64,000 nt of DNA from a bacterium (GCA_043745355.1 JAYTSY010000009.1:17783-81782), one strand, 5' to 3'. Shown: positions 24,373-44,714, numbered from the stretch's first letter. The notes: generated by a model from the letters alone, not told the origin. Numbers and translations: made by a program.

Positions 24373-24395
24373 AGTGTAGACTGACTGTTATCCCT

Positions 24396-26267: not shown

Positions 26268-26431
26268 AGAGCTGTATGTGGGTTTCTGCGGGTTTGAGGT
26301 TTCTGAAATCTAAATGAACTATATCATATTTTATACTATATGTCAAAATATGCGTAATATTCGCACTTTTCAGCAAAATATGCTTGCAGGTCTTGCATTC
26401 TCCTCGTTGCTATAGTAATCTATGGTCTCAA

Positions 26432-26851
26432 ATGCCAACATTAAATCAACTTATCAAGCGAAAGCGCTCTAAGACTGCTCGAAAGAGTAAGGCTATTGCC
26501 CTTACTCGAGGTTTCAACGTTCTCAAAAACCGACCAATCTTCTTTGATGCACCATTCAAACGAGGTGTGTGCACAAAGGTAACTACAAAGACTCCTCGTA
26601 AGCCTAACTCTGCTATTCGAAAGATCTGCCGTGTTCGACTTACTAACGGCATGGAAGTTACTGCATACATCCCAGGTGAGGGACACAACTTGCAGGAACA
26701 CTCAGTGGTATTGCTCCGAGGTGGTCGTGTAAAGGACGTAGGAATCCGATATACGGTTGTTCGAGGAAAGCTCGACTGTGCTGGTGTTGAAAAGCGCCGA
26801 AAGCAGCGATCAGCATACGGAACAAAGAAGCCAAAGGTAGCAAAGAAGTAA
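26432..26851 (+). CDS. rpsL: 30S ribosomal protein S12
   Basis: [12 protein letters not shown]...PNSAIRK...GGRVKD. Confidence 0.95.
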
Positions 26852-26960: not shown

Positions 26961-27431
26961 ATGCGAAGAAAAGTAAAAAATCGAAATGTAGCGAAAGCTG
27001 ATTCTAAATATAACTCTGACACAATCGGAAAGTTTATTAACTATTGTATGTGGGATGGAAAGAAGGAGACTGCTACGCGTGTAGTGTACGATTCACTTGA
27101 GGCAATCAAGGAAAAGGCAAAGACAGAGAACCCTATTGAAATATTTGATACTGCAATCAAGAACGCAGGTCCATCAGTTGAAGTACGATCACGACGGGTG
27201 GGTGGTGCAAACTATCAAGTTCCACGAGAAGTACGACCTGAACGACGTACATATCTTGCTATGAAGTGGATCATTGACGGTGCACGAGCAAAAAAGGGAC
27301 AGGCAATGCACTTGAAACTAGCAGATGAGCTCATCGCTGCTTCAAAAAATGAAGGTGAAGCTATCAAGAAGCGAGACAATACTCACAAGATGGCAGAAGC
27401 CAACAAGGCGTTTGCACACTTTGCGTGGTAA
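26961..27431 (+). CDS. rpsG: 30S ribosomal protein S7
   Basis: Typical S7 sequence (VEVRSRRVGGANYQVP). Confidence 0.95.
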   Translation: MRRKVKNRNVAKADSKYNSDTIGKFINYCMWDGKKETATRVVYDSLEAIKEKAKTENPIEIFDTAIKNAGPSVEVRSRRVGGANYQVPREVRPERRTYLAMKWIIDGARAKKGQAMHLKLADELIAASKNEGEAIKKRDNTHKMAEANKAFAHFAW

Positions 27432-27440
27432 TTCACAAAT

Positions 27441-27529
27441 AACAAAAGAGCCTTGGCTCGTTCGCCCCACAACCTTAAGACTCAAGTCTCAAAGGAATGA
27501 TGCGCAAACGTCGCCAAGGCTCTTTTGTT
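27441..27529. terminator. long hairpin between the convergent rpsG and TrmB-like genes
   Basis: Perfect 17-bp arms AACAAAAGAGCCTTGGC (27441-27457) and GCCAAGGCTCTTTTGTT (27513-27529) with a 55-nt loop. An A-run and a T-run flank it. Confidence 0.6.
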
Positions 27530-27540
27530 ATTTATACTGT

Positions 27541-28338
27541 CTATTTACTCAATGCCACCGACTGCCACGAGAGATTGAATATCGTAGTCATCATATTATG
27601 AATATTTTCATCCTCAATGATGGTTCCAATTGCATTCGTCTTTGAGAGATTAACAATCGATACTTTGTTTTTCGCATAGATAACAATTTCGCCAGACATT
27701 GGAAACGTTTCCTTTGGTGCAAAGCGGAGATCTAGCCACACTTTTTTGGAGATATCCCCGTATCGTATCTCATTGAACTTTCTCCCCATTTCATTGTCGA
27801 TGGTGATTCCTCTTGTCGTCACGTTATATTTCTCTTTCTTCTTTACATATTCATCAAAGAAGTCTTTAGGGAGGTATTCCATGAGCTCTGATGCATCTGC
27901 CCAAGCAAGCATCTCGTATGATTTTTTCGTGGAGTAATGATCCTCATATATTTCCATGATACCCTCCACTCCTTCGTAATAGGTTATCTTAGGTTTCTCG
28001 CCAAGCATTCCATGGAGTTCTTTAATATCAGGGAGTATGGCTTTTGCGGTTTCAAATGAGTCTTCCGCCATCTTCACTTTATCCGATGCATACTTGATGA
28101 ATCTTTCTGGTTTCTCGATTTGATAGAAAAGCTTGTTTCGCTTCTCGATCTCATTCACAAGGTTCCTGACTGAGAGGTTGAGGAGGACCTTGTAGACTGT
28201 GCTCCGGTTTAGCTCTGTGTATTCGGCAAGGCGGGAAGGGAATGCTCCTCCTAGCTCCAAAAGGGCTAAATATACAAGAGCTTCCTTGTCGGAAAAGCCA
28301 GTAGCTTCCAGTTTTTTGAGAAAAGCAGGGTTTTTCAT
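27541..28338 (-). CDS. TrmB-like transcriptional regulator (paralog)
   Basis: GFSDKEALVYLALLELG...RSTVYKVLLNL HTH and a C-terminal YYEGVEG domain. Confidence 0.7.
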   Translation of the reverse strand: MKNPAFLKKLEATGFSDKEALVYLALLELGGAFPSRLAEYTELNRSTVYKVLLNLSVRNLVNEIEKRNKLFYQIEKPERFIKYASDKVKMAEDSFETAKAILPDIKELHGMLGEKPKITYYEGVEGIMEIYEDHYSTKKSYEMLAWADASELMEYLPKDFFDEYVKKKEKYNVTTRGITIDNEMGRKFNEIRYGDISKKVWLDLRFAPKETFPMSGEIVIYAKNKVSIVNLSKTNAIGTIIEDENIHNMMTTIFNLSWQSVALSK

Positions 28339-28486
28339 TGCTTAAGCATAAGATATTGCCTATTTTTGTCAATACTAACGAACAAAATAGTCTATATACT
28401 ATAGATATGGCTAATATTAAGACTAATATGTGGTGCATATGTTCACTGGAAAATACAGATATTGAAACATGTGTTATATTTTGCTC

Positions 28487-29605
28487 ATGAAAAAAATAAC
28501 AACAATCATTATCGCAGTTTTGGTCCTTATCGGCGCCATTTGGGGTATATCAAATCTCAGAGAGTCCAACAATGGTCCAGTAACTAAACCTGTCATTACC
28601 ATAGGTGTCACCCTTCCATTGACGGGAGACGTGGCAATGCTCGGCCAGAGCAACAAGAAGGCGATTCTTTTAGCCCAAGCGCAACTTCCAAAGAATGCCA
28701 AGTACGACTATAAGCTTGTGTTTGAGGATGACCAGTTTAAGTTGGCTATAGGAGCAACGACTGCAAATAAACTTATCAGTGTGGATCATGCCTCTGCTCT
28801 CATCTCATTTGGATCACCTGTAGGCAACGTAGTGAGCCCGATCGCTGAACAGAATCATATTACTCACATAAACGACTTCGCATCTGATCCTCATGTAGCG
28901 AGTGGTAACTACAACTTCGTAGATTATACACCCGCATATCAGGACTCAAAAGTATTCATCTCTGAATTGAAGAAACGAAACATCCATACATTGGTATTTT
29001 TCGGTCAGCAGGATAACCCTGGTGTTCATGCCATCATTGAGACATTTCTTCGTGATGCATCAAGCACACCAGAAATTAAAGTACTTTCAACACAGATGTT
29101 TAATTCTGGTACTCGGGACTTCCGGACTGAAATCGCTAACGTAAAAGGTCTTAATCCTGATATCTACGTACTTGAAGCAAGCAGTCCTGAGTTAGAAACT
29201 TTGACGCAGCAATTACGACAGGCAGGGATAAAGACTCCAGTTACCACAATGGAAGCGTTTGAATTCTCACCACAACTCTCATTGTTTGAAGGTATGTGGT
29301 ATGTAAACGGTGCTGATCCAGAATCATGGTTTGTTGATACTTATTCAAAGACGTATGGAGAGACTCCGAAGTTCGGTGCAGCAAATGGATATGATTCATT
29401 CAATCTCATTGTGCAGGCAGCAGAAAAAGCAGGAGATGGAAAGACTGTGCCTTCCAGTACAGAAATTCAGCAGGAGTTAAGTAAAATAAAAGGATTTGAT
29501 GGTGCACTCGGCAAGAATTTGAATGTAGGCGCAGATCATCTCGTCGTATCGAATGCTGTTGTTCGAATGATCAAGGATGGTGTGCCGGTGACAATAGGAA
29601 AGTAG
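28487..29605 (+). CDS. ABC transporter substrate-binding protein, Leu/Ile/Val-binding (type 1 PBP) family, paralog 1
   Basis: Signal anchor followed by IGVTLPLTGDVAMLGQ. Divergent from the regulator at 27541-28338. Confidence 0.8.
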   Translation: MKKITTIIIAVLVLIGAIWGISNLRESNNGPVTKPVITIGVTLPLTGDVAMLGQSNKKAILLAQAQLPKNAKYDYKLVFEDDQFKLAIGATTANKLISVDHASALISFGSPVGNVVSPIAEQNHITHINDFASDPHVASGNYNFVDYTPAYQDSKVFISELKKRNIHTLVFFGQQDNPGVHAIIETFLRDASSTPEIKVLSTQMFNSGTRDFRTEIANVKGLNPDIYVLEASSPELETLTQQLRQAGIKTPVTTMEAFEFSPQLSLFEGMWYVNGADPESWFVDTYSKTYGETPKFGAANGYDSFNLIVQAAEKAGDGKTVPSSTEIQQELSKIKGFDGALGKNLNVGADHLVVSNAVVRMIKDGVPVTIGK

Positions 29606-29611
29606 GCAGTA

Positions 29612-29650
29612 AATAAAAACACCGCCAGAGATGGCGGTGTTTTTATTTTC
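29612..29650. terminator. bidirectional terminator between convergent genes
   Basis: ACACCGCCA / TGGCGGTGT stem flanked by A and T runs. Confidence 0.75.
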
Positions 29651-30482
29651 TCTCAATAATATCCCGCATCGCTTTGTTGTGATCGATCTTTCGGCCGCCA
29701 GCTTTGACGAAACTAAACATGTCTTTGAGGAATCCAGTCATGTTGGAGTTTGTGATCTCAATTGCAACTTCTTCTTTCCAGTTGATGATAAGAGTCGTTG
29801 TTTTGAAGAGCCAGATCTCAGCATCATAATTGAATACATTATCAGGAAAAACATGGTAGTCAGCCATGCGGCCTTCGAGACTTTCAATTGCCCCCTCAAA
29901 CTTTTTTGGATCCCTTTTGATGTCTTCTGCGTATTTTCTGTAAGCACTTTCATTGATCAGTCCATCTAAAATGATCTGGTTTGACTTGATTGCTTCATTG
30001 AATTTTCCAATGAGTGTAGATGATGCCTTTTCAACAATTTCCATGAATGATCTATAGTGCTGGATAGCACGAATGCGCTCATTTTTGTTTTCGGATGCGA
30101 TACGAGCATATGCAGGCACGATCTCTCTCGCCCCGATGTGAATGATGAATTCGTCTTCCCTTGAGACTTTTATCTTTACTCCCTTTTTATCCTTATTTGC
30201 GATCTCGATCTCCCCGAGAGCTTCTTTGAGCTTTTGAGTGAGACGCTCAAGGCTGATTGCTATGTATGATCGCCGTTTACCAATGGATTGATGCTCAACA
30301 AGCCCTTTAGCTATGAGGCCCCGAATAGCATGGTTTATGCCAGTTCTAGAGAGGGAAGTAGCCCTTACAATACCCTGAACATTCCTTGGTTCCTCGAGGC
30401 TATTTAGAATAGCAATCTCCGCCGCAGAGAGATTGAGCATTTTGAGTGAATTATTGTTCCAATCCATGCCAAAAGTATACAT
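29643..30482 (-). CDS. winged-helix (TrmB/MarR-like) regulator (paralog)
   Basis: LSAAEIAILNSL...LSRTGINHAIRGLIAKGLV HTH. Confidence 0.6.
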   Translation of the reverse strand: MYTFGMDWNNNSLKMLNLSAAEIAILNSLEEPRNVQGIVRATSLSRTGINHAIRGLIAKGLVEHQSIGKRRSYIAISLERLTQKLKEALGEIEIANKDKKGVKIKVSREDEFIIHIGAREIVPAYARIASENKNERIRAIQHYRSFMEIVEKASSTLIGKFNEAIKSNQIILDGLINESAYRKYAEDIKRDPKKFEGAIESLEGRMADYHVFPDNVFNYDAEIWLFKTTTLIINWKEEVAIEITNSNMTGFLKDMFSFVKAGGRKIDHNKAMRDIIERK

Positions 30483-30632
30483 ATGACTATAAAATAGTCA
30501 AATAAGAATAACGAATATGCGCTTATAAATATAGCTTTATTTGGGTTTATTGTTCAAAATATAGTATTGACACGACTATATATACGTTGCTTGATATGAT
30601 ATTGAGGTCTTATAAACGTAAATATTAATTAT

Positions 30633-31097
30633 ATGCAAAATACAACCACAGTAGTTAAGGGTATGGAGGGGTTTGAAAAGTTCGCGCCTTTCCTTGCCCC
30701 ACGATCTATTTCTGTTAATACCCCATGCGAAGGCTTTTCAGTCATTCAGCTTGGGCCATTTAATAAAAGATCGGAGGATGATGTTGCCGCAGCGTCTATC
30801 GTTTTGCTTGAAGTCGGAGGAGAGCATCCTCAGCACAAGCATGAGAAGTCTTATGCAACATTTCATTTCTTGTGCGGTAAAGGTCATGTGATCCTCGGGG
30901 ACGACCAAAAAAGAGTTCCGTATACAGCCGGAACAATAATGGATGTTCCCCGCGGAATGCTACATGGGTTTGCTCCGGAAGAAAGCGGAGTAATGCTCTC
31001 AACTCAGAAAGGAGAACCGATCATCGCAGAGAGCGGTGAAACAGATATCGAGTATGTTGATGCACGATGCTTTACAGAACATGGCACGGTACTCTAG
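30633..31097 (+). CDS. cupin-domain protein
   Basis: Cupin-like His cluster (GGEHPQHKHEKS ... MLHGF). Confidence 0.6.
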   Translation: MQNTTTVVKGMEGFEKFAPFLAPRSISVNTPCEGFSVIQLGPFNKRSEDDVAAASIVLLEVGGEHPQHKHEKSYATFHFLCGKGHVILGDDQKRVPYTAGTIMDVPRGMLHGFAPEESGVMLSTQKGEPIIAESGETDIEYVDARCFTEHGTVL

Positions 31098-31131
31098 AAA
31101 GTCTTAAAAATTAAATTAAACATTAAATAAA

Positions 31132-32250
31132 ATGAAGAATTATAAAATACCAGTTATTGTCCTTATTGTGTTAGCTATTGTTGTCGGAGTCTTGTATTCC
31201 AATAACAAAAAAGTTGATACAGCAGGATTGAAAATCGGAGTCATTGCACCACTCACGGGCGATTTCGGCGCGGTGGGTGAAAATGTAGTCAAAGGAATCA
31301 AAGCTGCACAGGCTGTGTATGCAGAGAAGTCAGGGCAAATGATCCCGATCATTGTTGAAGATGATAGTGCAGATGCTGCAAAAGGATTGAGTGCTTACAA
31401 AAAACTGACAGAAGTTGACCGTGTTAATGGTCTCATAAATACATTCACATCAACAATGGATGCAATCTATCAGCCTGTAAGGCAAGCAGAGTATCCGACA
31501 ATGATGGAATTCTTCCAAGCCAACAATGTCGCTGATGATAATGTATTTCAAATGACGCTCGGTAATGACAATGTGTGGGATCGATATGCAAAATATATTT
31601 CAAATTCAAAGTATGATTTGTCTCGGGTAGTGATTGTACATTCAGTTGATGCCGCACAAGCATCGTTTGCTACAGCATTCAATGCTGAGTACAAAAAACC
31701 TGTTACTACTATTGTCGCTTCATCTGATAAAAATGGCTTGCGAGGGGATGCAGCTAAAATTGCTGCACTCAAACCAACAATGGTCATTTTCTTTATGACA
31801 CCTGAGAACGGTGCGATTCTAACAAAAGAAGTGTTGCCACTCATCAGTACGTCGACTCAACTCGTCTATGACATTCAGCTTTACACTGGCCTTACACAGT
31901 ACCAGCAGCAGCTTGGTGGTGATCTCTCTAAAATAAACGGAGCAATCAATATCATGTTCGAAGGCGATAAAACAAGTACTGAATACCAGAAGTTCATTTC
32001 AACATACAAGAAATTGTATCCGAATGAAGAACCCGGCTTCCTCGCTGATTATGGCTATGACTCTTTCATGACTTATGTTCACACATACAATAAAGATAAT
32101 GCAAAATGGGTAGCGAATCTAAAGTCAGACGATGAAAAAGGAGCAAGTGGAGAAGTGAAGTTCGATAAGAATGGAATCCGTATTGTTCCACTTGTAATCA
32201 AGAAAGTGATTGATGGGAAGTCGGTGACGATTGATAGTTTGCCCTTGTAA
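31132..32250 (+). CDS. ABC transporter substrate-binding protein, Leu/Ile/Val-binding family, paralog 2
   Basis: Signal anchor followed by IGVIAPLTGDFGAVGE. Confidence 0.8.
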   Translation: MKNYKIPVIVLIVLAIVVGVLYSNNKKVDTAGLKIGVIAPLTGDFGAVGENVVKGIKAAQAVYAEKSGQMIPIIVEDDSADAAKGLSAYKKLTEVDRVNGLINTFTSTMDAIYQPVRQAEYPTMMEFFQANNVADDNVFQMTLGNDNVWDRYAKYISNSKYDLSRVVIVHSVDAAQASFATAFNAEYKKPVTTIVASSDKNGLRGDAAKIAALKPTMVIFFMTPENGAILTKEVLPLISTSTQLVYDIQLYTGLTQYQQQLGGDLSKINGAINIMFEGDKTSTEYQKFISTYKKLYPNEEPGFLADYGYDSFMTYVHTYNKDNAKWVANLKSDDEKGASGEVKFDKNGIRIVPLVIKKVIDGKSVTIDSLPL

Positions 32251-32312
32251 TCTATTCAGTAAATATATTAAAACAAAGTCGTCGCTCCAAGGCGGCGCCT
32301 TTGTGTTAATAT

Positions 32313-33647
32313 ATGTTTATGGAAAAACCTGAATTATATCGTGATGAACTAGCAGAAAAACTTGTCACTGCTCAAAAAGACAGCCGAAAAGAGATGTTGG
32401 AATCTGCCAAAGAAACAGGCGAGTATCAACAAGCATATGAGTTGCATAAAGGAGAAGTAAAAGAGTATGCAATTGCCCGAATTGATGAAAAGGTAGCTGA
32501 ATTAAAGGCAGAAATTGTTCGGCTGGATAGCATGAGGGATTTTTATACCAAACCTTCAGAACCTGGAGATGCAACGAGTGAAGTGCCGGCCACGGCACTT
32601 GATGTAGAAAGAGAACTTATCGAAATTCCTCAGAAATGTGTCCTTGAGACCTTGGCGACGGGAGAAGAAATACAAGAGGTATTGGCTTGTAGATCCTTGG
32701 TAGCATTTAGGGAACATCTCCGACAGCTCATAGAACATTTGTTAAAGGAAAACGGATTAAATAAACTGGAGTTCATCAAGAGGTTAAAACCTGACAGTGA
32801 GAGTGCTCAGCATGAAATAATGCGAACGGTTCTAAGTAGAATCGTAAGTGGAGATAGGCCTATCAGTATAGGTTCATTCCAGCACCGGCATATATTCAAA
32901 GGATTAGGATTGGATATTTCAGATTTCGCATCAAAAATTGAGTCACTTCAAACCAAAGCTAAACTCGATTTTGATATTGTGGAAAATTTCTTCAAGCCAG
33001 AGCGAGTTGTATTAAATGAATTTGCGGGGTCATTGGATAAAATGGATAGAGTTGATTTTTCATCACTTATTTCTTCCCTTCATCAGTTGGATAACGAGGG
33101 AATGAACCTGCCTGAGATAGAAGGCAGTATTCTCAAGTTTAAACCTACCGAGAGGCAGGTATTAGAGGTGCTCGCAGCAGACACTCTCGGGGAATTCAAT
33201 GAAAGATTATCAGTTTTTATTTCAGGACTTCTTGATGCAAATAATCTTAGTCCAAAAGAATTTGCTGAGGAAATCGGAATAGATCCCTCCATCATTCGAA
33301 ACGTAAGGAATGGATCAAGGCCGATAAGTAGTGGTGCCGAACAGCATAAAAAGTTATTCCTAGGATTAGGTCTTGATATTAGACTTTTTGAATCCAGACA
33401 GAGAAAGTTAATAAATGATGTAAAGTTTGGTGAGCAGAAATTGGAGGATTTCAAGTATTCAGATAGGGACATTAAGCCTTATTTACAATTGGTAGCGGAA
33501 CATTTTTCAGATGTTACTGTTGGAGATTTGGTACGTATCGCTCATTTTATTGACGATACTTTTGAAATGATCGACAAAAACAGTAATGTGTTTGTAGAAA
33601 TCCTGAGTAATGAGTTTCCCGATTTGAAGCGGACTAATAAGCAATAA
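32313..33647 (+). CDS. hypothetical protein with two internally repeated HTH-like segments
   Basis: Repeat pair ..IVSGDRPISIGSFQHRHIFKGLGLDISDF.. and ..VRNGSRPISSGAEQHKKLFLGLGLDIRLF.. Confidence 0.55.
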   Translation: MFMEKPELYRDELAEKLVTAQKDSRKEMLESAKETGEYQQAYELHKGEVKEYAIARIDEKVAELKAEIVRLDSMRDFYTKPSEPGDATSEVPATALDVERELIEIPQKCVLETLATGEEIQEVLACRSLVAFREHLRQLIEHLLKENGLNKLEFIKRLKPDSESAQHEIMRTVLSRIVSGDRPISIGSFQHRHIFKGLGLDISDFASKIESLQTKAKLDFDIVENFFKPERVVLNEFAGSLDKMDRVDFSSLISSLHQLDNEGMNLPEIEGSILKFKPTERQVLEVLAADTLGEFNERLSVFISGLLDANNLSPKEFAEEIGIDPSIIRNVRNGSRPISSGAEQHKKLFLGLGLDIRLFESRQRKLINDVKFGEQKLEDFKYSDRDIKPYLQLVAEHFSDVTVGDLVRIAHFIDDTFEMIDKNSNVFVEILSNEFPDLKRTNKQ

Positions 33648-33706
33648 ATAAATATCATGTTAAAGCGCCGCCGTAAGGCGGCGCTTTATGTTAAAATACC
33701 TCCATC

Positions 33707-34588
33707 ATGGACATCGTTCCACAACTCGTAGCCAACAGTATTATTGCAGGTGCGATATATGCTTTGATTGCACTCGGTTTCAATCTTATCTACGGAGCAA
33801 CTAAATTCTTCAACCTTACTCACGGTGTCCTTGCTGCGATCGGTGGATATACCGTCTATGCACTCATCAAGAAGTTAGGACGGCTTGGGACATCAATTCC
33901 TGAGATCATCATCGCTGCAATTGCGGGTATGGCAGTAGCTGCTCTCATAGGATTCTTGCTGGATAGGTTCATTTATAGACCACTACGAGTACGCAGAGCC
34001 TCACCTATGGTGTTCCTTGTAGCATCGCTCGGAGCATTCACCTGTCTCCAAGCGTTTCTCGCTATCATTTTCACTAGTCAGTTTCAAACACTTTCAAGTG
34101 ACGCAGGAGATATTCAGACCTTCCAAGTATATGGTGCCATATTCACTTCAACTCAGCTCATCATTATTGCGTCAACGATCATTGTCATGATCGGACTCGC
34201 TATCCTCAAGAAAACATTATTCGGTAAATCGATAGAGGCACTTTCAGATGATGAACAAGTTGCAAAGATTGTTGGTATAAACACAGAGAAGGTAATCTCA
34301 ATTGTTTTCATTATCGGCTCTGCGATCGCAGGACTTGCAGGAGTACTTGTTGGCTACGATACGGGACTTGAGCCGACCATGGGCATGTCACTTCTTTTGA
34401 AAGGGGTAGTTGCGTCAATCATCGGTGGCATCGGTAATGTGTATGGAGGAGTACTCGGCGCATTCCTTCTCGGTTTCGTTGAGAACTTCGGCATTTGGAA
34501 GATCTCGGGAGAGTGGAAGGATGCGATCGCGTACGGACTACTTATTATATTTTTACTATTCAGACCACAGGGGATTTTGAGGAAGTAA
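33707..34588 (+). CDS. livH: branched-chain amino acid ABC transporter permease (LivH family)
   Basis: QLVANSIIAGAIYALIALGFNLIYG... is a typical LivH N-terminus. Confidence 0.88.
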   Translation: MDIVPQLVANSIIAGAIYALIALGFNLIYGATKFFNLTHGVLAAIGGYTVYALIKKLGRLGTSIPEIIIAAIAGMAVAALIGFLLDRFIYRPLRVRRASPMVFLVASLGAFTCLQAFLAIIFTSQFQTLSSDAGDIQTFQVYGAIFTSTQLIIIASTIIVMIGLAILKKTLFGKSIEALSDDEQVAKIVGINTEKVISIVFIIGSAIAGLAGVLVGYDTGLEPTMGMSLLLKGVVASIIGGIGNVYGGVLGAFLLGFVENFGIWKISGEWKDAIAYGLLIIFLLFRPQGILRK

Positions 34589-34647
34589 GTTCAGTATTAT
34601 TTTAAATTTTATTTATCTGTATTTAATACGCACGATGGTATAGATAA

Positions 34648-35034
34648 TTGGTGGAAAAAGACTTTGATCAATGGAATCTCGAAAAGAAAAGGGCCGAATA
34701 CTCCAAAGATGATTCTTTTTGGGTTTTGGAAGGAGAAATTTGGTGGTGTAGGTTTGGCCTAAACATCGGAGTTGAAATTGATGGAAAGAATCATATGTTT
34801 GAAAGACCCGCCTTGGTAATCAGAAAATTTAATGACCAAATGTTTTGGATATTACCTCTTAAACATTCGACAAGCACCAATCGGTTTTGCCACAAGCTTC
34901 AAGGAGCCGAAGAGTCACAGGTTGTGTTATCTCAAATCAGAACCGTAAGCTTTAAAAGACTGGTGAGAAAGATGGGAGATGTCGAAAGAGAAGAATTAGC
35001 TTTAATTAAAGAGAAAGTAAAAGCGCTTCTATAA
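34648..35034 (+). CDS. PemK/MazF-family toxin-like protein (solitary)
   Basis: GEIWWCRFGLNIGVEIDGK...RPALVI...ILPL pattern typical of the MazF/PemK fold. TTG or GTG start. Confidence 0.55.
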   Translation: MVEKDFDQWNLEKKRAEYSKDDSFWVLEGEIWWCRFGLNIGVEIDGKNHMFERPALVIRKFNDQMFWILPLKHSTSTNRFCHKLQGAEESQVVLSQIRTVSFKRLVRKMGDVEREELALIKEKVKALL

Positions 35035-35213
35035 AATCGGCACCCCGCTCCATTTTCATGGGGCGGGGTCCTCGGAGCCATACGTCGTATGACTATAATA
35101 TCCATATTGTAGCAGAGAGTGATTAAAAATCAATCAAAAAACGATAAAATAGCTTGTCATTTTTCTCGCAGTAATTTTGTCAAAGCACTCAAAATACCCC
35201 ATAATGAAGCCTA

Positions 35214-36080
35214 ATGGAATACATCCTTCACCTTGGCGTCCTAGTCGCAATCTACGCCGTTCTTGCCCTCTCACTTGATCTCATTGTGGGCTATACAGGC
35301 CTTTTGTCGGTCACTCACGCTGCATTCTATGGCATCGGGGCATATACGACAGCAATACTCCTCACAGGATATGGCGTGAATTTCTTTGTCTCCATTCTCA
35401 TCGGCATGGTCGTCGCAGCAGTCATTGCACTCGGCATCGGATATATCCTCAGTCGATTCAAAGATGATTACTATGCACTCGTGTCTTTCGGATTCAATAT
35501 CATCGTATTTAGCGTGATGCTAAATTGGCAAGATCTTACTCGAGGACCATTAGGCATTCCTGGAATCACAAAGCCGGTACTTTTTGGATTCACATTCGGA
35601 AGCACTGGGCAGTTTCTCCTGCTCACCCTCGTTATTCTCGCTATCATGTACGCAGTTGCACGATTCATTGTTGGTTCATCATTCGGCCGGGTGCTCAAAG
35701 CAATCCGTGAAGATGAAAAAGCAATATCGGTATTTGGATATCACACGCAAGTCTACAAGCTTGTGATCTTTGTGATATCAGCCTCGATGGCAGCTGTCGC
35801 TGGATCACTTTTTGCGTCCTACATCACTTTCATCGATCCATCGACATTCACACTGAACGAATCGATCTTCATTCTCGCTATGATCATTCTCGGTGGTATT
35901 GCCAACGTGCGAGGCGCGATCCTCGGTGCACTTTTCCTCATATTGCTCCCCGAAGTATTGCGATTTGTAGGATTTCCGACTGATGTAGCAGCGCAGATGA
36001 GGCAAGTGGTATATGGCGCCCTTCTCATTGTCCTCATGCTCTATCGACCGCAGGGGTTGGTGGGAGAATATAAACTGTAA
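35214..36080 (+). CDS. livM: branched-chain amino acid ABC transporter permease (LivM family)
   Basis: LSLDLIVGYTGLLSVTHAAFYGIGAY. Confidence 0.88.
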   Translation: MEYILHLGVLVAIYAVLALSLDLIVGYTGLLSVTHAAFYGIGAYTTAILLTGYGVNFFVSILIGMVVAAVIALGIGYILSRFKDDYYALVSFGFNIIVFSVMLNWQDLTRGPLGIPGITKPVLFGFTFGSTGQFLLLTLVILAIMYAVARFIVGSSFGRVLKAIREDEKAISVFGYHTQVYKLVIFVISASMAAVAGSLFASYITFIDPSTFTLNESIFILAMIILGGIANVRGAILGALFLILLPEVLRFVGFPTDVAAQMRQVVYGALLIVLMLYRPQGLVGEYKL

Positions 36081-36092
36081 AATCGAAACGTC

Positions 36093-36860
36093 ATGACAAT
36101 AAATATAAACAGACTCACCACACATCATCTCTCAAAACACTTTGACGGCATCAAGGCTGTGAATGATCTTTCTATTGGTTTTGAACATGGAAAGATAACG
36201 GGTGTCATCGGTCCGAACGGCTCAGGTAAATCAACCCTCATCAATCTCCTCACCGGAATGATCCCGCAGACATCCGGAGAGCTCGCAATCGTTGTCGGAT
36301 CTGAAGAAGTAAAAGTTAAACAAATGCGTGCCAGAGAGACCTCTACGTTTGCGATAACTCGTACCTTTCAGGAAGTAAGGTTGTTTGAGCAAATGAGCGT
36401 GATTGATAATATTCTTGTCGTGGTCACGCGCCGATCATGGGTAGGAGCACTTTTTGAAAAGAATAAACAATATCATCACGCTATAGCTGAGAAGGTTTTG
36501 CAGCGTGTAGGTATCTGGCAGTTCAAAAACAAGCTTGCCATCAATCTCTCGTATGGTCAGCGTAAGTTACTAGAGATCGCAAGGGTTCTTGCTATGCGAG
36601 AAATTGGAAAGGCACAAACGATATTTTTTGACGAACCATTTGCTGGACTATTTCCCGAGATGGTAAAGGTTGTCGTGTCTGTTATTAAAGAGTTACGAGA
36701 TCAAGGTGCGACTATCATACTCGTTGAACACAACATGGATCTCATACGAGAACTGTCTGACTCTGTCATTGTGATGGATTCAGGAGAATTGCTTGCTGAA
36801 GGAGAGCCTACACACGTGCTATCAAAGCCTGAGGTTATAGAAGCGTACTTGGGGGAGTAG
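36093..36860 (+). CDS. livG: branched-chain amino acid ABC transporter ATP-binding protein (LivG family)
   Basis: Walker A GPNGSGKST, signature LSYGQRK, Walker B IFFDEP. Confidence 0.9.
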   Translation: MTININRLTTHHLSKHFDGIKAVNDLSIGFEHGKITGVIGPNGSGKSTLINLLTGMIPQTSGELAIVVGSEEVKVKQMRARETSTFAITRTFQEVRLFEQMSVIDNILVVVTRRSWVGALFEKNKQYHHAIAEKVLQRVGIWQFKNKLAINLSYGQRKLLEIARVLAMREIGKAQTIFFDEPFAGLFPEMVKVVVSVIKELRDQGATIILVEHNMDLIRELSDSVIVMDSGELLAEGEPTHVLSKPEVIEAYLGE

Positions 36861-36946
36861 TCTCATAATTTCTTTGTTCAGAAGATAGCAAGGAAACTTA
36901 ATTTAAGATTGGTGATCGAAAAAGCTTAAACTTAACAATGAGGCAA

Positions 36947-37711
36947 TTATTTCTCTGTAAACTGCCACAAACACATAAACAACGCATCAAGCATTGCGGT
37001 GATAGTCGGTGAATCAACAATGATCGAGTACAGCTCGCCTTCTTTGTGAGAAAAAAGTGCCACTTTCTTTCCGTAGATAATGATCGTTCCATCGAAAGTG
37101 AAACCTTTCGGAAGTAATCGTGTATCACGATGGCTGTCAGGAAGATATTCTTTTGGAATATCACTTTCTTCTCGCCATGGAATAATCATTTTTGTCTTTA
37201 CATCAATTTTCTTTTTGTAGTCCAGAACCTTGCCGATATATTTCGGGAGATATTCGATGAGTCGTGGGTTGGAGATGGTATGGAACTCCTGGATATCTTT
37301 GAGGTGAGGATTATCGTATACGTCATCAAAAACAAGTTTTACCCCTTCTCGCCCAGTATATGTTCGAACATCTGATTCCTTGTCCCCAGAGTTCTTGAGC
37401 GCCATAAGCCTTGGAATGAGGTCGTTGAGTGATGAAACCTTCTCCTCCAGGTCATTTTTGAGTCGGGCAGGGTTTTCAGCAAGGAAATGGAGGACATTGT
37501 TCTTCTTGTACGAGGAGACAAGGTGCTTCTCTTTGAGGGTGTCTAGTATGAGATATACGGTGGCACGGGGGATCTTGGTATTCGCAAATATTGCAAAAGC
37601 CGTATTAAATGACTCCCCGAGAGCCCCAAGAGGCTTCTTTAGCAGGTATATATAGACCTTAGCCTCACCCTCATTCAGGCCATATTGTTGGAGAGATTGT
37701 ATGTTTTCCAT
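36947..37711 (-). CDS. TrmB-like transcriptional regulator (paralog)
   Basis: GLNEGEAKVYIYLL...RATVYLILDTLKEKHLV. Confidence 0.7.
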   Translation of the reverse strand: MENIQSLQQYGLNEGEAKVYIYLLKKPLGALGESFNTAFAIFANTKIPRATVYLILDTLKEKHLVSSYKKNNVLHFLAENPARLKNDLEEKVSSLNDLIPRLMALKNSGDKESDVRTYTGREGVKLVFDDVYDNPHLKDIQEFHTISNPRLIEYLPKYIGKVLDYKKKIDVKTKMIIPWREESDIPKEYLPDSHRDTRLLPKGFTFDGTIIIYGKKVALFSHKEGELYSIIVDSPTITAMLDALFMCLWQFTEK

Positions 37712-37841
37712 AATATTGTCATGTTTTATGACAGCAATAGTATAGCAAAAATAGCTATATACACAAGGATATTTGACATATATATATAAATACTGTCTTG
37801 TTTATATATACCAAACTGTCAAAAAGCCCTAGTATGTGGGT

Positions 37842-38324
37842 ATGAAAAACAAAGGTATAAAAATTGATCATATAATCTCAAAATCCCACTGCCGTATTGA
37901 GGCAATGGCCTGTTTTGATTGTAGTCAATCTGCTCTCTGGGATAGAGCTGGCCACCCTCATAAATTGGCGCCAGCATGCATCAATCTTCGGGATTTTTCA
38001 GCAGGTAGAGATCTTGCAAAGGGAAACCTAGTTTTTGAGATACATACATTTGCTGGCATCCCTCAGACATATAGAGGGAAAGTAACAGACTTTAGGGATG
38101 GTGTCCACTGGGAAATGAGTACTACTCCGCGGACGCTCACGTGGTTGTTTGGATTGCCTCATCGTGTTCGATATCAATTTGGCACAAATTCGATTGGAAG
38201 TAATTTGACCGTATCTTGCGACTATCAACTTCAGGGCGTGTTCACTTTGCCAATCATTCGATCATTGGTGACCAAGACAATGGAAAGAGCAGTAAGGATA
38301 TTGGTTGGGTCAGCGGATAGGTAG
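37842..38324 (+). CDS. hypothetical protein, possibly SRPBCC/START-like
   Basis: The ORF is divergent from the regulator. The fold assignment is a weak impression only. Confidence 0.35.
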   Translation: MKNKGIKIDHIISKSHCRIEAMACFDCSQSALWDRAGHPHKLAPACINLRDFSAGRDLAKGNLVFEIHTFAGIPQTYRGKVTDFRDGVHWEMSTTPRTLTWLFGLPHRVRYQFGTNSIGSNLTVSCDYQLQGVFTLPIIRSLVTKTMERAVRILVGSADR

Positions 38325-38345
38325 TAATAATATAAAAATAATAAA

Positions 38346-39488
38346 ATGAAAAAAACATCATACGCAATAGTTTCCATTATAATTTTAATAGCTATTGTCT
38401 CTATAATAAAAAAAGTCGATGATACGAATGTAAGAAAAAATGAAATCAGAATCGGAGTCATAAGCACACTTACGGGAAATGCTGCGTATTATGGACAGTC
38501 AACTATGCATGGAGCAGAAGTTGCCCGTGCCGAGATGCAGGCAAAGTATCCAAACAAGAAGATAGTGCTTTATCACGAAGATAGTTTGTTTACACCAAAG
38601 GGAGGGATAGACGCGTACAACAAGGTAAAAGATGCGGATAAGGTACAAGCGATCATGGTGCAAGGAAGCAACGTCGCAGTTGCCGTCGAAGCTATTGCAA
38701 ACAAAGACAATATGCTCCAAGTTGATGCGTCCGTACTTGCAAGTTCATATAGAACTCCTGATGACATGTCATTTCGAATGACTCCAGGAGGAGGAAATGA
38801 GATTTCCTTCGCTGTCGATTATCTAGTTCGGAACAACCTGAAGCGAGTTGCGGTTTTGTATTTGAAAAATGAAATAGGGCAGACACTTTCTGGCGCACTT
38901 GCATCAAGCACAGGTATTCAGATTCTGGCTAACGAGGGGTATGCACCAGACACAACTGATTTCAAGACATTGCTCACAAAAATAAATCAGACTCATCCAG
39001 ATGTTATATATATTGCAGGTATTGCTGCTCAAACAGCTACTGTTTTAAAACAATCTGATGAGTTAGGTATCAAATCTAAATTCATGAGTTATCGTGGAAC
39101 AGAAGATCCAGTGCTCCTAAAGAACGCAGGACGACTTGCCGAGGGGATTCTCTACACAAGTGCATATGAAAATGCATTCAACGCGGACTACAGAAAGCCA
39201 AAAGATGTATCGATAGATACATTTATGAAAGAGTATTTAGGGATGTACCATGACGGGGGACTTCCTAATGCATATGCAGCAGAAGCATACGAAGGGACTA
39301 AAATAATCATCGAAGCCCTTTTGAAGTGCGGCGATAACAAGATGTGTCAGAAGGACTATGTATCTTCGATCAAAGACCGTGCAACAGTATTCGGAAATAT
39401 CTCTTTTGATTCTTATGGAGATGTTTCGTACCCATTCTTTATGAAGACTGTGTATGAAGGAGGGTTTAGTGCGGTGGAGCGAAATTAA
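38346..39488 (+). CDS. ABC transporter substrate-binding protein, Leu/Ile/Val-binding family, paralog 3
   Basis: Signal anchor followed by IGVISTLTGNAAYYGQ. Confidence 0.8.
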   Translation: MKKTSYAIVSIIILIAIVSIIKKVDDTNVRKNEIRIGVISTLTGNAAYYGQSTMHGAEVARAEMQAKYPNKKIVLYHEDSLFTPKGGIDAYNKVKDADKVQAIMVQGSNVAVAVEAIANKDNMLQVDASVLASSYRTPDDMSFRMTPGGGNEISFAVDYLVRNNLKRVAVLYLKNEIGQTLSGALASSTGIQILANEGYAPDTTDFKTLLTKINQTHPDVIYIAGIAAQTATVLKQSDELGIKSKFMSYRGTEDPVLLKNAGRLAEGILYTSAYENAFNADYRKPKDVSIDTFMKEYLGMYHDGGLPNAYAAEAYEGTKIIIEALLKCGDNKMCQKDYVSSIKDRATVFGNISFDSYGDVSYPFFMKTVYEGGFSAVERN

Positions 39489-39524
39489 TTTCTCTTATCG
39501 CAACTTTGCGATACAATTGAATTA

Positions 39525-40259
39525 ATGAACTCTTTCTCCCCAGACACACTCCTCGCCCTCTCAAACGTCAGCGTGCAGTACGGCGGTGTTAAAGCACTTG
39601 ATGCGGTGAATGTTGAATTCAAGCAAGGTGAGATTGTCGCCCTTATGGGACCGAATGGCGCAGGTAAATCAACAATACTCAAGGTATTGTTCGGATTAGC
39701 ACCAATTGCTGAAGGCACTGTTCTTTGGAGGGGAAACGTTGTTAATCCAGTTCCACACGAAATGGTTCCATTTGGGGTGACTCTTGTGCCTCAGGGAAAG
39801 CGAGTATTCGGCAAACTAACAGTACGAGAAAACCTTGAGCTAGGGGGTTATGCATTGAAGGATAAGAAACTTATCAACGAAAGGATCGAGGAGGTGCTCG
39901 AGCTCTTTCCCGCGCTTCGAACAAAGCTCAAACAAAAGTCAGGACAACTCTCGGGTGGCCAGCAACAAATGGTCGCTATCGCACGCGGCCTCATCACAGC
40001 TCCGCAGATATTACTTCTCGATGAACCATCACTCGGTCTTGCCCCGAAGGTAGTCAAAGAGGTTTTTGAGAAGATCAAGGAGATAAACGAGAAGAGAAAG
40101 ACATCTATTGTAGTCGTAGAGCATAATTTGAAGTCATTGCTCCCGATCGTTGACCGTGCCTATGTGCTGGATAAGGGAAAGATCATAAAGGAGGGAAGTG
40201 CAAGCTCGATCATTGAGAGCAATTTGCTTCAAAAGGTATTTTTGGGCACTCTCGTATAG
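39525..40259 (+). CDS. livF: branched-chain amino acid ABC transporter ATP-binding protein (LivF family)
   Basis: Walker A GPNGAGKST, LSGGQQQ, LLLDEPS. Confidence 0.9.
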   Translation: MNSFSPDTLLALSNVSVQYGGVKALDAVNVEFKQGEIVALMGPNGAGKSTILKVLFGLAPIAEGTVLWRGNVVNPVPHEMVPFGVTLVPQGKRVFGKLTVRENLELGGYALKDKKLINERIEEVLELFPALRTKLKQKSGQLSGGQQQMVAIARGLITAPQILLLDEPSLGLAPKVVKEVFEKIKEINEKRKTSIVVVEHNLKSLLPIVDRAYVLDKGKIIKEGSASSIIESNLLQKVFLGTLV

Positions 40260-40351
40260 CTAAAGTCTGGACTCATAAAACTATCTGTATTCTTGTGAAA
40301 AATGTAACAATTTTTCACTTGAAATTCAGGTAGAAGGAGTATAATTTGATC

Positions 40352-40702
40352 ATGCTAACGCAGCAAGATCTAATTTTAATAGAGGGAGTCGTCGAGCGAG
40401 TCGTCGAGCGAAAGCTTGATGAAAAGCTGAATGTCGCTTTTGGCGCCTTTGAAAAGAAAATTGATAAAAAGTTTGAAGATTTTGCGATAATGGTTCAGCG
40501 GGAATTTTCTAATATATATAAGCGTTTTGATTCAGTGGATGCACGATTTAACGATATGGACAAACGTTTCGATCGACTTGAAGTTCGTGTTGGCACCCTT
40601 GAAGAATCAATGAAGTTAGGGCTTCGTATTCTCAATCTCCATAATCAAAGAATTGAATCACTCGAAAGTGTCACTAAGACTTTGCAACTTGCAATTGCAT
40701 AA
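40352..40702 (+). CDS. coiled-coil hypothetical protein
   Basis: Heptad-like KRFDS.DARFNDMDKRFDRLE repeats. No other motifs. Confidence 0.5.
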   Translation: MLTQQDLILIEGVVERVVERKLDEKLNVAFGAFEKKIDKKFEDFAIMVQREFSNIYKRFDSVDARFNDMDKRFDRLEVRVGTLEESMKLGLRILNLHNQRIESLESVTKTLQLAIA

Positions 40703-40852
40703 GTAATTCTCATTGCCAACCCGCTAAAATAATGCTATTTTACCCGTACGACATGTAGTCTCCTTTTTCGGTACTTTGTGTCGGTGCATTATTAAAAACC
40801 AGGCCCCAAGCCTAAAGCGACGCAAGTCGCATATTTATTCAATAATTATTTT

Positions 40853-43000
40853 ATGAACAGAGATTATCCGTTAGACAAAGTACGTAACTTCGGTATTATC
40901 GCGCACATTGATGCCGGTAAGACAACAACATCAGAGCGCATCCTTTATTACACCGGCATGTCACACAAGATCGGTGAAGTACACGAAGGTGAAGCGACAA
41001 CCGACTGGATGGAACAGGAAAAAGAGCGAGGTATCACAATTACCGCCGCAGCTATTACTTGTTTCTGGAATCCATCGTACTTGGGCGAGGACAAATCTGG
41101 CATGCACCGATTCAACATTATTGACACTCCTGGTCACGTGGACTTTACGGTAGAAGTAGAACGATCTCTCAAAGTACTCGACGGTGGAGTTGTGGTATTC
41201 GACGGCGTTGCCGGCGTAGAACCACAATCAGAAACAGTGTGGCGTCAGGCTGACAAATATAATGTGCCTCGAGTTTGTTTCATCAACAAGCTGGACCGAA
41301 CTGGCGCATCATTCGAACGATCATTTGCTTCTATTCTCGATCGACTCAACAAAAATGCAGTACGAATGCAACTCCCTATCGGATTCGAAGGTGACTTCGA
41401 AGCAGTAGTTGACCTCCTCACTATGAAGTCATATCACTTTGAAGGTGATATGGGTAGTAAAGTAGTAGAAAAAGAAATCCCTGCTGACATGCTCGCCGAT
41501 GCGACAAAATATCGCGCTGAACTCGTCGAAAAGATCGTTGAATTCAATGATGAGATGATGAACGCATATCTCGAAGGAAAAACAGATTTCACAATTCCTG
41601 AACTCAAAGCCGCACTTCGAAAGGGTGTTATTGCTGGAAAGATTTTCCCCGTATTCACAGGATCAGCTCTCAAGAACAAGGGAACACAGCTCGTGCTTGA
41701 TGCTGTTGTCGACTACCTTCCGTCACCTCTTGATGTGCCACCAGTCAAAGGTATTGATCCAAACACAGGTGATGAAATTCTCCGACATGCATCTGATGAA
41801 GAACCATTTGCAGCGCTTGCATTCAAATTGCAGACAGACCCATTCGTAGGACAACTCACCTTCTTCCGTGTGTACTCAGGTACTATCGAAGCTGGTTCAT
41901 ATATATACAATTCAACAACAGGCAACAAAGAACGACTCGGACGAATCGTACGACTCCAGGCTAACAAGCGTGAAGAAGTAAAAAAAGTGTACGCGGGTGA
42001 AATCGCTGCTGCGGTAGGATTGAAAGAAGCAAAAACATCTCACACATTTTGTGATGAGAACAAGCCGATCATTCTCGATCCTATCAAGTTCGCTGAACCG
42101 GTTGTGTCCCTACGCATCGAACCTAAAACAAAAGCTGATCAGGAAAAAATGGGCGTCGCTTTGAAAAAGCTTGGTGATGAAGATCCAACGTTCCGAATCT
42201 CTTCAAACCCTGAAACAGGCGAAACTATTATTTCAGGTATGGGAGAATTGCATCTTGAAATTATGGTTGATCGTATGAAGCGAGAATTTGCTGTGGAGGC
42301 AAATGTCGGCAAGCCTCAGGTAGCATATCGAGAAACTATTCTCGGTGAAGCAGTAGAGGAATATAAATACATTAAGCAGTCTGGAGGAAAGGGTCAGTAC
42401 GGTCACGTTCAGATCAAATTGAAGAAGCTCCAGCCGTGGGAAGAAGGTAAGAAAATTCCAAAGAATGTGCATCGAGACGACACATTCGAATTCATCGACT
42501 CTATCAAGGGAGGTGCAATTCCAATTGAATTTATCCCAGCTGTTGAAAAGGGAGTACGAGAAGCGATGGAACGAGGTATTGTCGCAGGATTCCCGATGGT
42601 AGATATTTCATGTGAATTGCTTTTCGGATCGTACCACGATGTTGACTCATCTGAAATCGCGTACAAGATTGCTGCATCTCAGGCCTTCCAGGCTGGAGCA
42701 AAGAAAGCTCGACCAGTTATTCTCGAACCTATTATGCGTGTAGAGTGTGTTATGCCAGAACAGTTCATGGGTGATGTCACAGGATCTCTCTCATCAAAGC
42801 GAGGACAGATCGAAGGCATGGAAGATCGAGGACTCAACAAAGTTATCAAGGCAACAGTGCCACTATCTGAAATGTTCGGATACACAACCGACATTCGTTC
42901 TATGACACAAGGCCGTGGATCTATGACTATGGAATTCGATCACTATGATGTCGTGCCGCCAAACGTTGAGAAGACAATTGCCGAATCAAGAGGAAAATAA
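40853..43000 (+). CDS. fusA: elongation factor G
   Basis: [18 protein letters not shown] and full five-domain length. Confidence 0.96.
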
Positions 43001-43036
43001 TTAGGGGTCAGACCCCGTTTGGTTTGCTAAAAAACA

Positions 43037-43091
43037 CAAAAGGTCGGGCGTTTGTATCCGTGTCTGCGACATACATCCGCCTGACCTTTTG
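43037..43091 (+). terminator. long hairpin terminator after fusA
   Basis: CAAAAGGTCGGGCG / CGCCTGACCTTTTG arms (one G-U), preceded by a GGGGTCAGACCCC palindrome at about 43004-43016. Confidence 0.6.
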
Positions 43092-43589
43092 CGTTGTTTA
43101 ATACTGTAAATCTCATGAGTTGACGATTTCTTCATTAAGAGTAATATGAAAACCACTGAGAGCTTGAGCGGAAATTCATTTCCCATCGAGACGTCGAAGT
43201 ATCAGAACTTTACGATGAAAGCAGGTTTCCCTGTAGTGTTAGTTATCGGTCTCGTGAGTTTTGGTGCGCTGACAAGTCCCGAAACTCCGACAGTCGTCGT
43301 GCCAATTGTGAGCAATTCTGTTACGCAGTCCCTATCGCCTATGCCAGCTTCAGGAATCAGTGTACAGACATTTGTCCTCTTGGCGGAATGCTCAGTCAAA
43401 TTTCAACCCGCTGATCCATCGGCGGCATCAACCAGTAACAACGTGCAATCTGATCCTTCCTGGGATTGCAGTTGCAAGACGTCCCTCGAGACGTTCGACA
43501 TTCACAAGGATCCGGGGCGTATGCTCTGGAGGGACAAGTGGCTCGCCCAAATTGGGGCGGGCCGTTTTATTTACTGCTATACTTATTTT

Positions 43590-44348: not shown

Positions 44349-44366
44349 ATAATTGTCATAATTAAC

Positions 44367-44654
44367 ATGAACGAATTAGATAGTTTGAGATCGAATATCG
44401 ACAGAATTGATAAACAAATAATTCTTTTATTGGCAGAGCGCAAGGCCACGGTCCAAAGTGTGAGCGAATACAAGATCAAAAATGACATTGAGACTTTCCA
44501 ACCAGATCGTGAAAGGGAACTTTTTGAAAGAATGGATATTCTGGCAGATCAAAATGGACTGGAGACTCAATTCGTGCGTCAATTGTTTTCTTTGATTACT
44601 CAGCAATCAAAAAAGATGCAAGAAGATTTGAAAAAAGATGTAAGAGTTTGCTAA
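44367..44654 (+). CDS. chorismate mutase (AroQ class)
   Basis: LRSNIDRIDKQIILLLAERKATVQSV..K......PDRE pattern. Confidence 0.8.
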   Translation: MNELDSLRSNIDRIDKQIILLLAERKATVQSVSEYKIKNDIETFQPDRERELFERMDILADQNGLETQFVRQLFSLITQQSKKMQEDLKKDVRVC

Positions 44655-44714
44655 TCTTTGCGCGTATCCCCAATAGGTGTATATTTAAGATAATTAAAAA
44701 TTCATTAAAACTTT

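Follow-up and report, generated by a model that had tools for sequence, protein, structure and literature searches.

We analyzed a 64,000-nt stretch of a bacterial genome (GCA_043745355.1, JAYTSY010000009.1:17783-81782; hereafter the window, with positions counted from its first nucleotide) in which the str operon (rpsL, rpsG, fusA and tuf) is split by a 13.4-kb block of genes between rpsG and fusA. The block encodes an ABC importer of the Liv or hydrophobic amino acid uptake transporter (HAAT) type, together with regulators and a toxin. It is probably the lineage's own Liv/HAAT-type cluster, relocated locally into a permissive rpsG–fusA junction, and not a foreign island. The evidence comes from the gene content of the block, the position of the same cluster in relatives, its native composition and the variability of the junction among relatives.

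The host is a small-genome bacterium of the Patescibacteria (candidate phyla radiation, CPR). The best matches of its elongation factor G (EF-G, encoded by fusA) are metagenome-assembled genomes (MAGs) labelled Patescibacteria, Paceibacterota, Parcubacteria or Kaiserbacteria, with a maximum identity of 82% in species-representative genomes and 84% in metagenome contigs.

A transporter cluster separates rpsG from fusA

The four str genes keep their canonical order on the + strand (Table 1), and contiguity fails at two places: rpsG is 13,421 bp from fusA, with 15 open reading frames (ORFs) between them, and fusA is 6,145 bp from tuf. The original prediction, made from the sequence alone, had put the end of rpsG at 27431, followed by a strong hairpin, and the start of fusA at 40853; Pfam matches together with inverted-repeat and folding data bear out both. 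The gene families it listed for the block agree with Pfam as well, and its count of 14 genes has to be corrected to 15. It was also right that the rpsL–rpsG–fusA–tuf string is split at rpsG–fusA, and overlooked that tuf is not next to fusA either, being separated by a second insert of 6.1 kb. The rpsL ORF opens with a TTG at 26384 and the ATG at 26432 (MPTLNQLI...) is the likely true start; rpsL is 83–88% identical to its counterparts in two close relatives, L081 and L082 (L-numbers denote loci of relatives).

The order rpsG–block–fusA is not the artefact of one assembler, since an independently assembled Logan contig (14,196 bp, run SRR23617274) is 100% identical to positions 26963-41158 of the window and spans both junctions, taking in almost all of rpsG, the entire block and fusA up to its nucleotide 306. 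That assembly or binning joined contigs at the conserved rpsG and fusA genes is hardly credible. The Logan contig does start 2 nt into rpsG and stop 306 nt into fusA, where the assembly graphs evidently branch; however, the full arrangement is present as such a contig in two samples, and because one contig holds all of it, some organism carries rpsG–block–fusA regardless of binning.

The same cluster lies between secY and adk in relatives

In the window secY and adk are 47 bp apart and nothing lies between them, as read directly from the spacer; this is the empty site where relatives hold the liv cluster. Among the matches listed, more than 100 LivM homologues (nearly all of 288 a.a.) are 70–83% identical to LivM of the window, and those with an organism name are mostly MAGs labelled Taylorbacteria, Pacebacteria, Paceibacterota or Patescibacteria. 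For example, in L167/L168 (LivM 80%) the cluster is found in the spc operon between secY and adk–map, in the order TrmB(-)/binding-protein modules, livH, livM, livG and livF. It is likewise located between secY and adk in L169 (LivM 78%, labelled Taylorbacteria), in L170 (74%) and in L173 joined with L171 (82%). A livF homologue is upstream of adk, either directly or past one small gene, in L165 (LivM 80%) and in L174 (83%), the latter coming from the window's own sample. Across the gene arrangements with LivM at 74–83% identity, livF is upstream of adk in six and secY is upstream of the cluster in four.

The divergence of the liv core parallels that of housekeeping genes on the same contigs. 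Identities to relatives are 68–79% for livH, 74–83% for livM, 68–74% for livG and 63–74% for livF, and 66–76% for secY, 79–83% for rpsE and 48–64% for adk. Judged by the highest identity to any sampled genome, LivM (83%) is about as conserved as EF-G (84%). A neighbour-joining tree of concatenated LivHMGF (1,010 columns, rooted on L175) places the window inside the secY–adk-type group: the basal position goes to L170 in 77 of 100 bootstraps and to the window in 6.

Downstream of adk–map, one or two small ORFs after map, a gene for a large DUF8128/TraG-like ATPase (960–1067 a.a.) was observed in L165, L167, L168 and L169, followed by an NDK gene in L167–L169; the window ends before the corresponding region.

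The rpsG–fusA junction is variable in the clade

We surveyed 160 fusA loci of relatives, which have a backbone of comEC–MBL–M50–rpsL–rpsG–fusA–tuf–rpsJ–rplC in common. In the closest relatives (L081, L082 and L083; EF-G 84%) rpsG and fusA are separated by 107, 93 and 841 bp, respectively. The next three (L001, L002 and L003; EF-G 80–82%) are split at this junction by cargo that is unrelated to the block, except for a TrmB-like gene in L003 (36% identical to b11): Lgt, a radical-SAM protein, Lnb_N and a P-type ATPase in L001; a peptidoglycan-binding protein, a beta-CASP nuclease and a SLOG protein in L002; and Fic, the TrmB-like protein, AAA_14/DUF4143 and Bro-N in L003. A subclade with EF-G at 64–70% (L015, L017, L018, L102, L103 and L107) has two cargo genes in common, plus variable others. 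Altogether, rpsG and fusA are split in 17 of 53 informative relatives (EF-G at least 62%), versus 1 of 87 more distant bacteria.

The liv cluster itself is found at rpsG–fusA in none of the 160 related loci, and the sole match to a block gene in any relative's rpsG–fusA gap is an ABC ATPase of L107 (33%). The synteny comparison suggested with the original prediction therefore comes out as predicted: the block does separate rpsG from fusA, and this order is not shared by the whole lineage, rpsG and fusA being contiguous in the three closest relatives. In L001 (JAZKJG010000002.1, locus 2927-22139; the closest species-representative, EF-G 82%) fusA is isolated on both sides: cargo of 7.1 kb follows rpsG, and the next 10 kb downstream contain no tuf.

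A terminator-like GC-rich hairpin with a U-tract is present 3′ of rpsG in L081, L082, L083, L004 and L001 (z from -2.3 to -8.0), in the nearest relatives even where fusA comes directly next, and a TGGTAAAAT-like or TGGTAAACT-like element is found ahead of fusA in L081 and L082. From these elements we infer that rpsG–fusA was already a terminator–promoter boundary in the clade, and cargo would be tolerated there for this reason.

Other junctions of the same loci were scored as carrying an insertion when the gap was at least 800 bp. Insertions were found at rpsJ–rplC (13/76) and rplB–rpsS (10/57), and about half of the informative relatives also hold cargo at fusA–tuf; no such gap was found at tuf–rpsJ, rplC–rplD, rplD–rplW, rplW–rplB, rpsS–rplV or rplV–rpsC.

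The block is native in composition and lacks island hallmarks

The tetranucleotide distance of the block to the rest of the window is 0.0112, versus 0.0101 ± 0.0014 for other 13.4-kb segments (within one standard deviation). Its GC content is 41.3% versus 43.4%, its GC content at third codon positions (GC3) is 0.411 versus 0.433 for other genes and 0.419 for ribosomal genes (P about 0.6), and its codon-usage distance equals that of other genes. No integrase or transposase domain was found among the block proteins by Pfam and further profile searches, the window has no tRNA genes or Rfam families, and no direct repeat of at least 14 nt was found at the block borders, where the sole find was the hairpin after rpsG. 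The checks named with the original prediction thus revealed neither a deviation in tetranucleotides, GC3 or codon usage nor att-like repeats at the borders.

Its reading of the block as an accessory island is accordingly the part of the original prediction that fell. That the block came from outside the clade is very improbable, and largely refuted. Its absence from the rpsG–fusA junction in all relatives would suit such an origin, as would a toxin gene and several regulators, which are frequent in islands; but the composition and codon usage are native, mobility genes, tRNA genes and att-like repeats are lacking, and the liv core is conserved in the clade. Moreover, the named best homologues are mostly from Paceibacterota-type MAGs at identities equal to those of core genes, and relatives have the same cluster architecture.

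A probable local relocation and alternative histories

By a local relocation, an ancestral order rpsG-[fusA..secY]-[liv]-adk would have become rpsG-[liv]-[fusA..secY]-adk with orientation kept, the resident cluster moving about 21 kb and changing places with the fusA-to-secY segment. Such an exchange would take three breakpoints, all at junctions known as permissive. As no mobility genes or repeats were found, tandem duplication and loss or three-point recombination would be the most plausible routes: either [fusA..liv] was duplicated in tandem and one copy of each part was then lost (two deletions), or the cluster moved by a three-breakpoint transposition. No duplicate remnants or pseudogenes were seen in the window. 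The move would have been tolerated at a junction that was already a transcription-unit boundary and that unrelated cargo has repeatedly settled in relatives. Concerning the right breakpoint, the region upstream of fusA shows weak partial similarity to L001 and L003 only, and none to relatives with contiguous rpsG–fusA.

Several points weigh against this relocation. In L174 and L165 the cluster has a neighbour other than secY on its upstream side, and in L175/L176 (LivM 71%) a compact liv cluster lies outside the ribosomal array. Because of the latter, the secY–adk placement is a trait of a subclade and not class-wide, and the cluster has moved more than once. The branching of the window inside the secY–adk-type group has moderate bootstrap support (77%), the sampled relatives (EF-G up to 84%, LivM up to 83%) include no intermediate or recent sister that would fix the polarity or the breakpoints, and the promoters, terminators and operators described below are consensus-level predictions. 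In addition, a donor of the same class would give similar composition and identities. This last point favours a history in which the liv cluster was lost from secY–adk and later regained at rpsG–fusA from another Paceibacterium, as do the acceptance of unrelated cargo at rpsG–fusA, the shuffling of binding-protein/regulator modules among relatives and the co-occurrence of L174 (LivM 83%) in the same sample. We regard this loss and re-acquisition as rather unlikely: no liv core gene is closer to the sampled genomes than housekeeping genes are (LivM at most 83%, EF-G at most 84%), liv and housekeeping identities order the relatives similarly, two events are needed, and there are no integrase genes or repeats.

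The reverse polarity, with rpsG–liv–fusA ancestral in the lineage and the cluster shifted to secY–adk in relatives, is quite improbable. The polarity does hang on a moderately supported tree, and in L175, the deepest of the relatives sampled, the cluster is at a third site; however, the adk-side site is found in six arrangements and the secY side in four, the cluster is at rpsG–fusA in 0/160 fusA loci, the three relatives closest in EF-G are contiguous there, and the window is basal in so few bootstraps (6/100). A relocation within the array also invites a selective reading, which we offer tentatively: the importer cluster of an auxotroph may be held in the ribosomal array by selection, with uptake linked to translation, and hop among fixed landing-pad junctions without leaving the array. 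The set of landing pads would be, just as tentatively, M50–rpsL, rpsG–fusA, fusA–tuf, rpsJ–rplC, rplB–rpsS and secY–adk. The chance of a random landing in an array of ~25–40 kb in a genome of ~1 Mb is ~3–4% (an estimate; the chromosome of L005 has 993 kb).

Transporter, regulators and toxin

The block appears to hold one transporter core (LivH, LivM, LivG and LivF) and three binding proteins serving it. The families of a HAAT importer are all found above Pfam gathering scores: two BPD_transp_2 permeases, two ABC ATPases and Peripla_BP_6. LivH, LivM, LivG and LivF score 136, 171, 174 and 201 bits against the NCBIfam Liv equivalog models, far under the respective cutoffs of 379, 366, 362 and 441, and the NCBIfam Urt (urea) models score about the same on these proteins; the substrate is therefore not assignable from families. 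CPR bacteria are known auxotrophs, and against this background amino acids are probably the substrate.

The three binding proteins are mutually 25–27% identical and are thus old paralogues, probably with different ligands. A recent duplication of binding proteins or regulators within the block was considered and ruled out, as the paralogues are only 25–27% identical. Each binding-protein gene, alone or behind a small gene (the cupin gene or b12), is divergent from a TrmB-like gene, and such TrmB(-)/binding-protein(+) modules are repeated two to five times in the clusters of relatives. For example, b01 is ~41% identical to regulators encoded in the equivalent place next to a binding-protein gene in L165, L167 and L173, and b03 is 60% identical to its L162/L163 orthologue, which adjoins the b05 orthologue (74–77%). 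This arrangement suggests that each binding protein has its own TrmB-like regulator. The N-terminal winged helix-turn-helix (PF01978) of the TrmB family, whose members are sugar-sensing regulators, is above cutoff in b01 and b11 and just under the curated cutoff in b03 (24.2 versus 25.6 bits). In the full-length TrmB/TrmBL1 equivalog scan, made for b01 only, NCBIfam gave 26 bits versus a cutoff of 650, with just the N-terminal 140 residues aligned. The divergent spacers (28339-28468, 30483-30632 and 37712-37835) share an AT-rich AATAGyTATATAC-like motif and contain short palindromes (TCTATA-TAC-TATAGA and ATATAGT-N9-ACTATAT). These motifs are possible operators, a weak lead in low-complexity sequence. 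The 162-a.a. protein b12 has no match in Pfam, NCBIfam or PHROGs.

Between livH and livM is a solo gene for a PemK/MazF-like toxin. In L162/L163, L169, L170 and L173 a PemK gene occupies the same livH–livM interval, and in L171/L172 one immediately precedes livM; these PemK proteins are only 30–37% identical to that of the window, while LivM is 74–83% identical. No ORF of at least 60 a.a. that could encode an antitoxin was found in the flanking spacers of 59 and 179 bp. Phd-type antitoxin genes are present inside the liv cluster in L162 and L164, paired with ParE toxin genes in L162.

Predicted transcription units

The hairpin 3′ of rpsG (27437-27533, 97 nt) has perfect 21-bp arms (27437-27457/27513-27533) and a structured 55-nt loop, with T/A runs on its flanks, and folds at -49.1 kcal/mol (z = -9.6). 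It is a putative bidirectional terminator for the convergent rpsG (+) and b01 (-). As a repeated element it was rejected, since its arms are unique in the window and absent from 175 other loci. The original prediction had given the block its own terminators and promoters: terminator-like hairpins in the region are indeed enriched about twofold (23 observed versus 12.8 ± 4.3 expected from shuffled sequence), but promoter-like matches are not (36 observed versus 40.3 expected).

The predicted hairpins suggest the transcription units rpsL-rpsG; b01; b02; b03; cupin-b05; b06; livH-PemK; livM-livG; b11; b12-b13-livF-b15; and fusA. Transcription of rpsL-rpsG would end at the 97-nt hairpin. The liv genes seem to be divided among several short units, each with its own terminator, and fusA would be transcribed from its own promoter. 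The -49 kcal/mol hairpin after rpsG and the terminator-like hairpins inside the block argue against co-transcription of str, as far as such predictions go. The small gene b15 at the right end was considered as a native gene of the fusA side and dropped, as it does not resemble the small ORF found ahead of fusA in L084.

Other inserts and features of the window

Three further inserts in the array are given in Table 1. In the fusA–tuf insert the PDH_C-domain protein has a long N-terminal extension and one hypothetical gene has a GC3 of 0.60; no homologues of this cargo were found in the 160 relatives' loci. The spacer between the M50 peptidase gene and rpsL, which holds another of these inserts, is about 0.05–0.33 kb in L004 and L083 and about 0.8 kb in L001. 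The insert between rplB and rpsS has a clearly low GC3 (0.26–0.32) and looks compositionally foreign, unlike the liv block.

Table 1. Coordinates of the features in the window, with the families or motifs assigned to them
Feature	Position	Strand	Assignment
Insert between M50 peptidase gene and rpsL	23229-26383		313-aa aminotransferase-V-like ORF, possibly truncated; 623-aa radical-SAM protein (-)
rpsL (S12)	26384-26851	+	Pfam Ribosom_S12_S23, E 7.6e-33
rpsG (S7), final gene ahead of the block	26961-27431	+	Pfam Ribosomal_S7, E 5.7e-57
b01, TrmB-like regulator, divergent from b02	27541-28338	-	Pfam TrmB, E 2.5e-13
b02, substrate-binding protein (LivJ/K type)	28469-29605	+	Pfam Peripla_BP_6, E 4.6e-35
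20-bp hairpin after b02	29608-29651		
b03, TrmB/MarR-like regulator, divergent from cupin and b05 genes	29643-30482	-	Pfam TrmB, E 3e-5, and MarR_2
b04, Cupin_2 protein	30633-31097	+	Pfam, E 5.6e-8
b05, substrate-binding protein	31132-32250	+	Pfam Peripla_BP_6, E 6e-22
Terminator-like hairpin after b05	32280-32297		
b06, 444-aa protein with HTH_3 motif	32313-33647	+	Pfam HTH_3, E 6.8e-5
Terminator-like hairpin after b06	33669-33683		
LivH-type permease	33707-34588	+	Pfam BPD_transp_2, E 4e-42
PemK/MazF-like toxin gene	34648-35034	+	Pfam PemK_toxin, E 1.6e-11; PHROG MazF-like, E 3e-16
LivM-type permease	35214-36080	+	Pfam BPD_transp_2, E 3e-47
LivG-type ATPase	36093-36860	+	Pfam ABC_tran and BCA_ABC_TP_C
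b11, TrmB-like regulator, divergent from b12 and b13 genes	36947-37711	-	Pfam TrmB, E 1.1e-8
b12, hypothetical, 162 aa	37836-38324	+	
b13, substrate-binding protein	38346-39488	+	Pfam Peripla_BP_6, E 4.8e-39
LivF-type ATPase	39525-40259	+	Pfam ABC_tran, E 2e-33
b15, coiled-coil protein, 118 aa	40346-40702	+	Weak coiled-coil matches alone
fusA upstream region	40703-40852	+	Promoter-like TTGCCA-17-TATTTT with TG (40713-40741), small hairpin (40799-40830)
fusA (EF-G)	40853-43000	+	Five EF-G Pfam domains, E down to 9e-61
Second str insert, fusA-tuf, 6.1 kb	43001-49145		PDH_C-domain protein, chorismate mutase, two hypotheticals, 816-aa membrane protein (-)
Predicted terminator hairpin after fusA	43004-43016		
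tuf (EF-Tu)	49146-50366	+	Pfam GTP_EFTU and domains D2, D3; followed by rpsJ, S10 and spc genes
Insert between rplB and rpsS, S10 operon, 2.0 kb	53337-55391		Four ORFs: 138 aa, NUDIX hydrolase, phrog_7929-like, DUF2283
secY	61892-63163	+	tblastn versus relatives 66-76%
adk	63211-63825	+	tblastn versus relatives 48-64%

Several features lie upstream of the ribosomal array. A complete diversity-generating retroelement (245-2876) comprises a target ORF (245-1024) with the variable repeat at 864-978, a template repeat (1337-1451) and a reverse transcriptase (1725-2876; RVT_1, E 5e-26); 22 out of 22 differences between variable and template repeats are at template adenines. A 62-nt direct repeat (87% identical) at 2864-2925 and 5605-5666 extends over the start codons of a TrmB-like gene (2907) and a PilB/T2SSE ATPase gene (5648); since it includes both a TATAAT box and a small hairpin, it has the look of a promoter plus leader that was duplicated. 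Type IV pilus/competence genes are found at 5648-8668 and 18829-20157 (T2SSE with MshEN, T2SSF and ComEC), and comEC-MBL-M50 belongs to the backbone conserved in relatives.

Comparison with known systems and implications

The closest precedent is the invasion and separation described for the ribosomal operon supercluster of Gammaproteobacteria and Bacilli, where a few non-mobile genes enter between operons, for example bfd-bfr between str and S10 and tusDCB between rpoBC and str in Salmonella; the authors prefer intrachromosomal duplication or recombination over long-distance transfer (Brandis, Cao and Hughes 2019, PMC6735719; Brandis 2021, PMC8046335). The window is similar in that cargo without mobility functions is set between translation-gene units, with terminator-like hairpins after rpsG in the nearest relatives. 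It differs in that the junctions (rpsG–fusA, fusA–tuf, rplB–rpsS and secY–adk) are inside the str, S10 and spc operons and not between operons, that the host is a CPR bacterium and splits are frequent in its lineage, that the insert is large (13.4 kb, 15 genes) and that the same cargo is found at two different array junctions in related genomes. The importer resembles LivJHMGF/HAAT systems (Transporter Classification 3.A.1.4, which includes UrtABCDE) in its two permeases, two ATPases (one with BCA_ABC_TP_C) and Peripla_BP_6 proteins, but regulator/binding-protein modules and a toxin gene break up its operon. Like a classical genomic island, the block comprises multiple genes, occupies its site in one genome and is missing from that site in relatives, and contains a toxin gene; unlike such islands, it has a native composition, no integrase, tRNA or direct repeats, and cargo that is conserved in the clade. 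A literature search of incomplete coverage found no report on insertions in CPR ribosomal arrays or on liv clusters nested in them.

A contiguous block of ribosomal protein genes is a standard marker set for placing CPR genomes and judging contig soundness. The window shows that this gene set is interrupted at a few recurrent junctions, a point of consequence for binning, for annotation by synteny and for the extraction of markers. The liv cluster is a concrete case of a multi-gene cluster at two array junctions in relatives, and it extends the invasion model to boundaries within operons and to bacteria with reduced genomes. It also raises the question of whether amino-acid uptake in auxotrophs is linked, by position or regulation, to the ribosomal genes, and its modular layout, with one transporter core, several binding proteins and apparently a TrmB-like regulator for each, may offer a handle on nutrient sensing in CPR bacteria.

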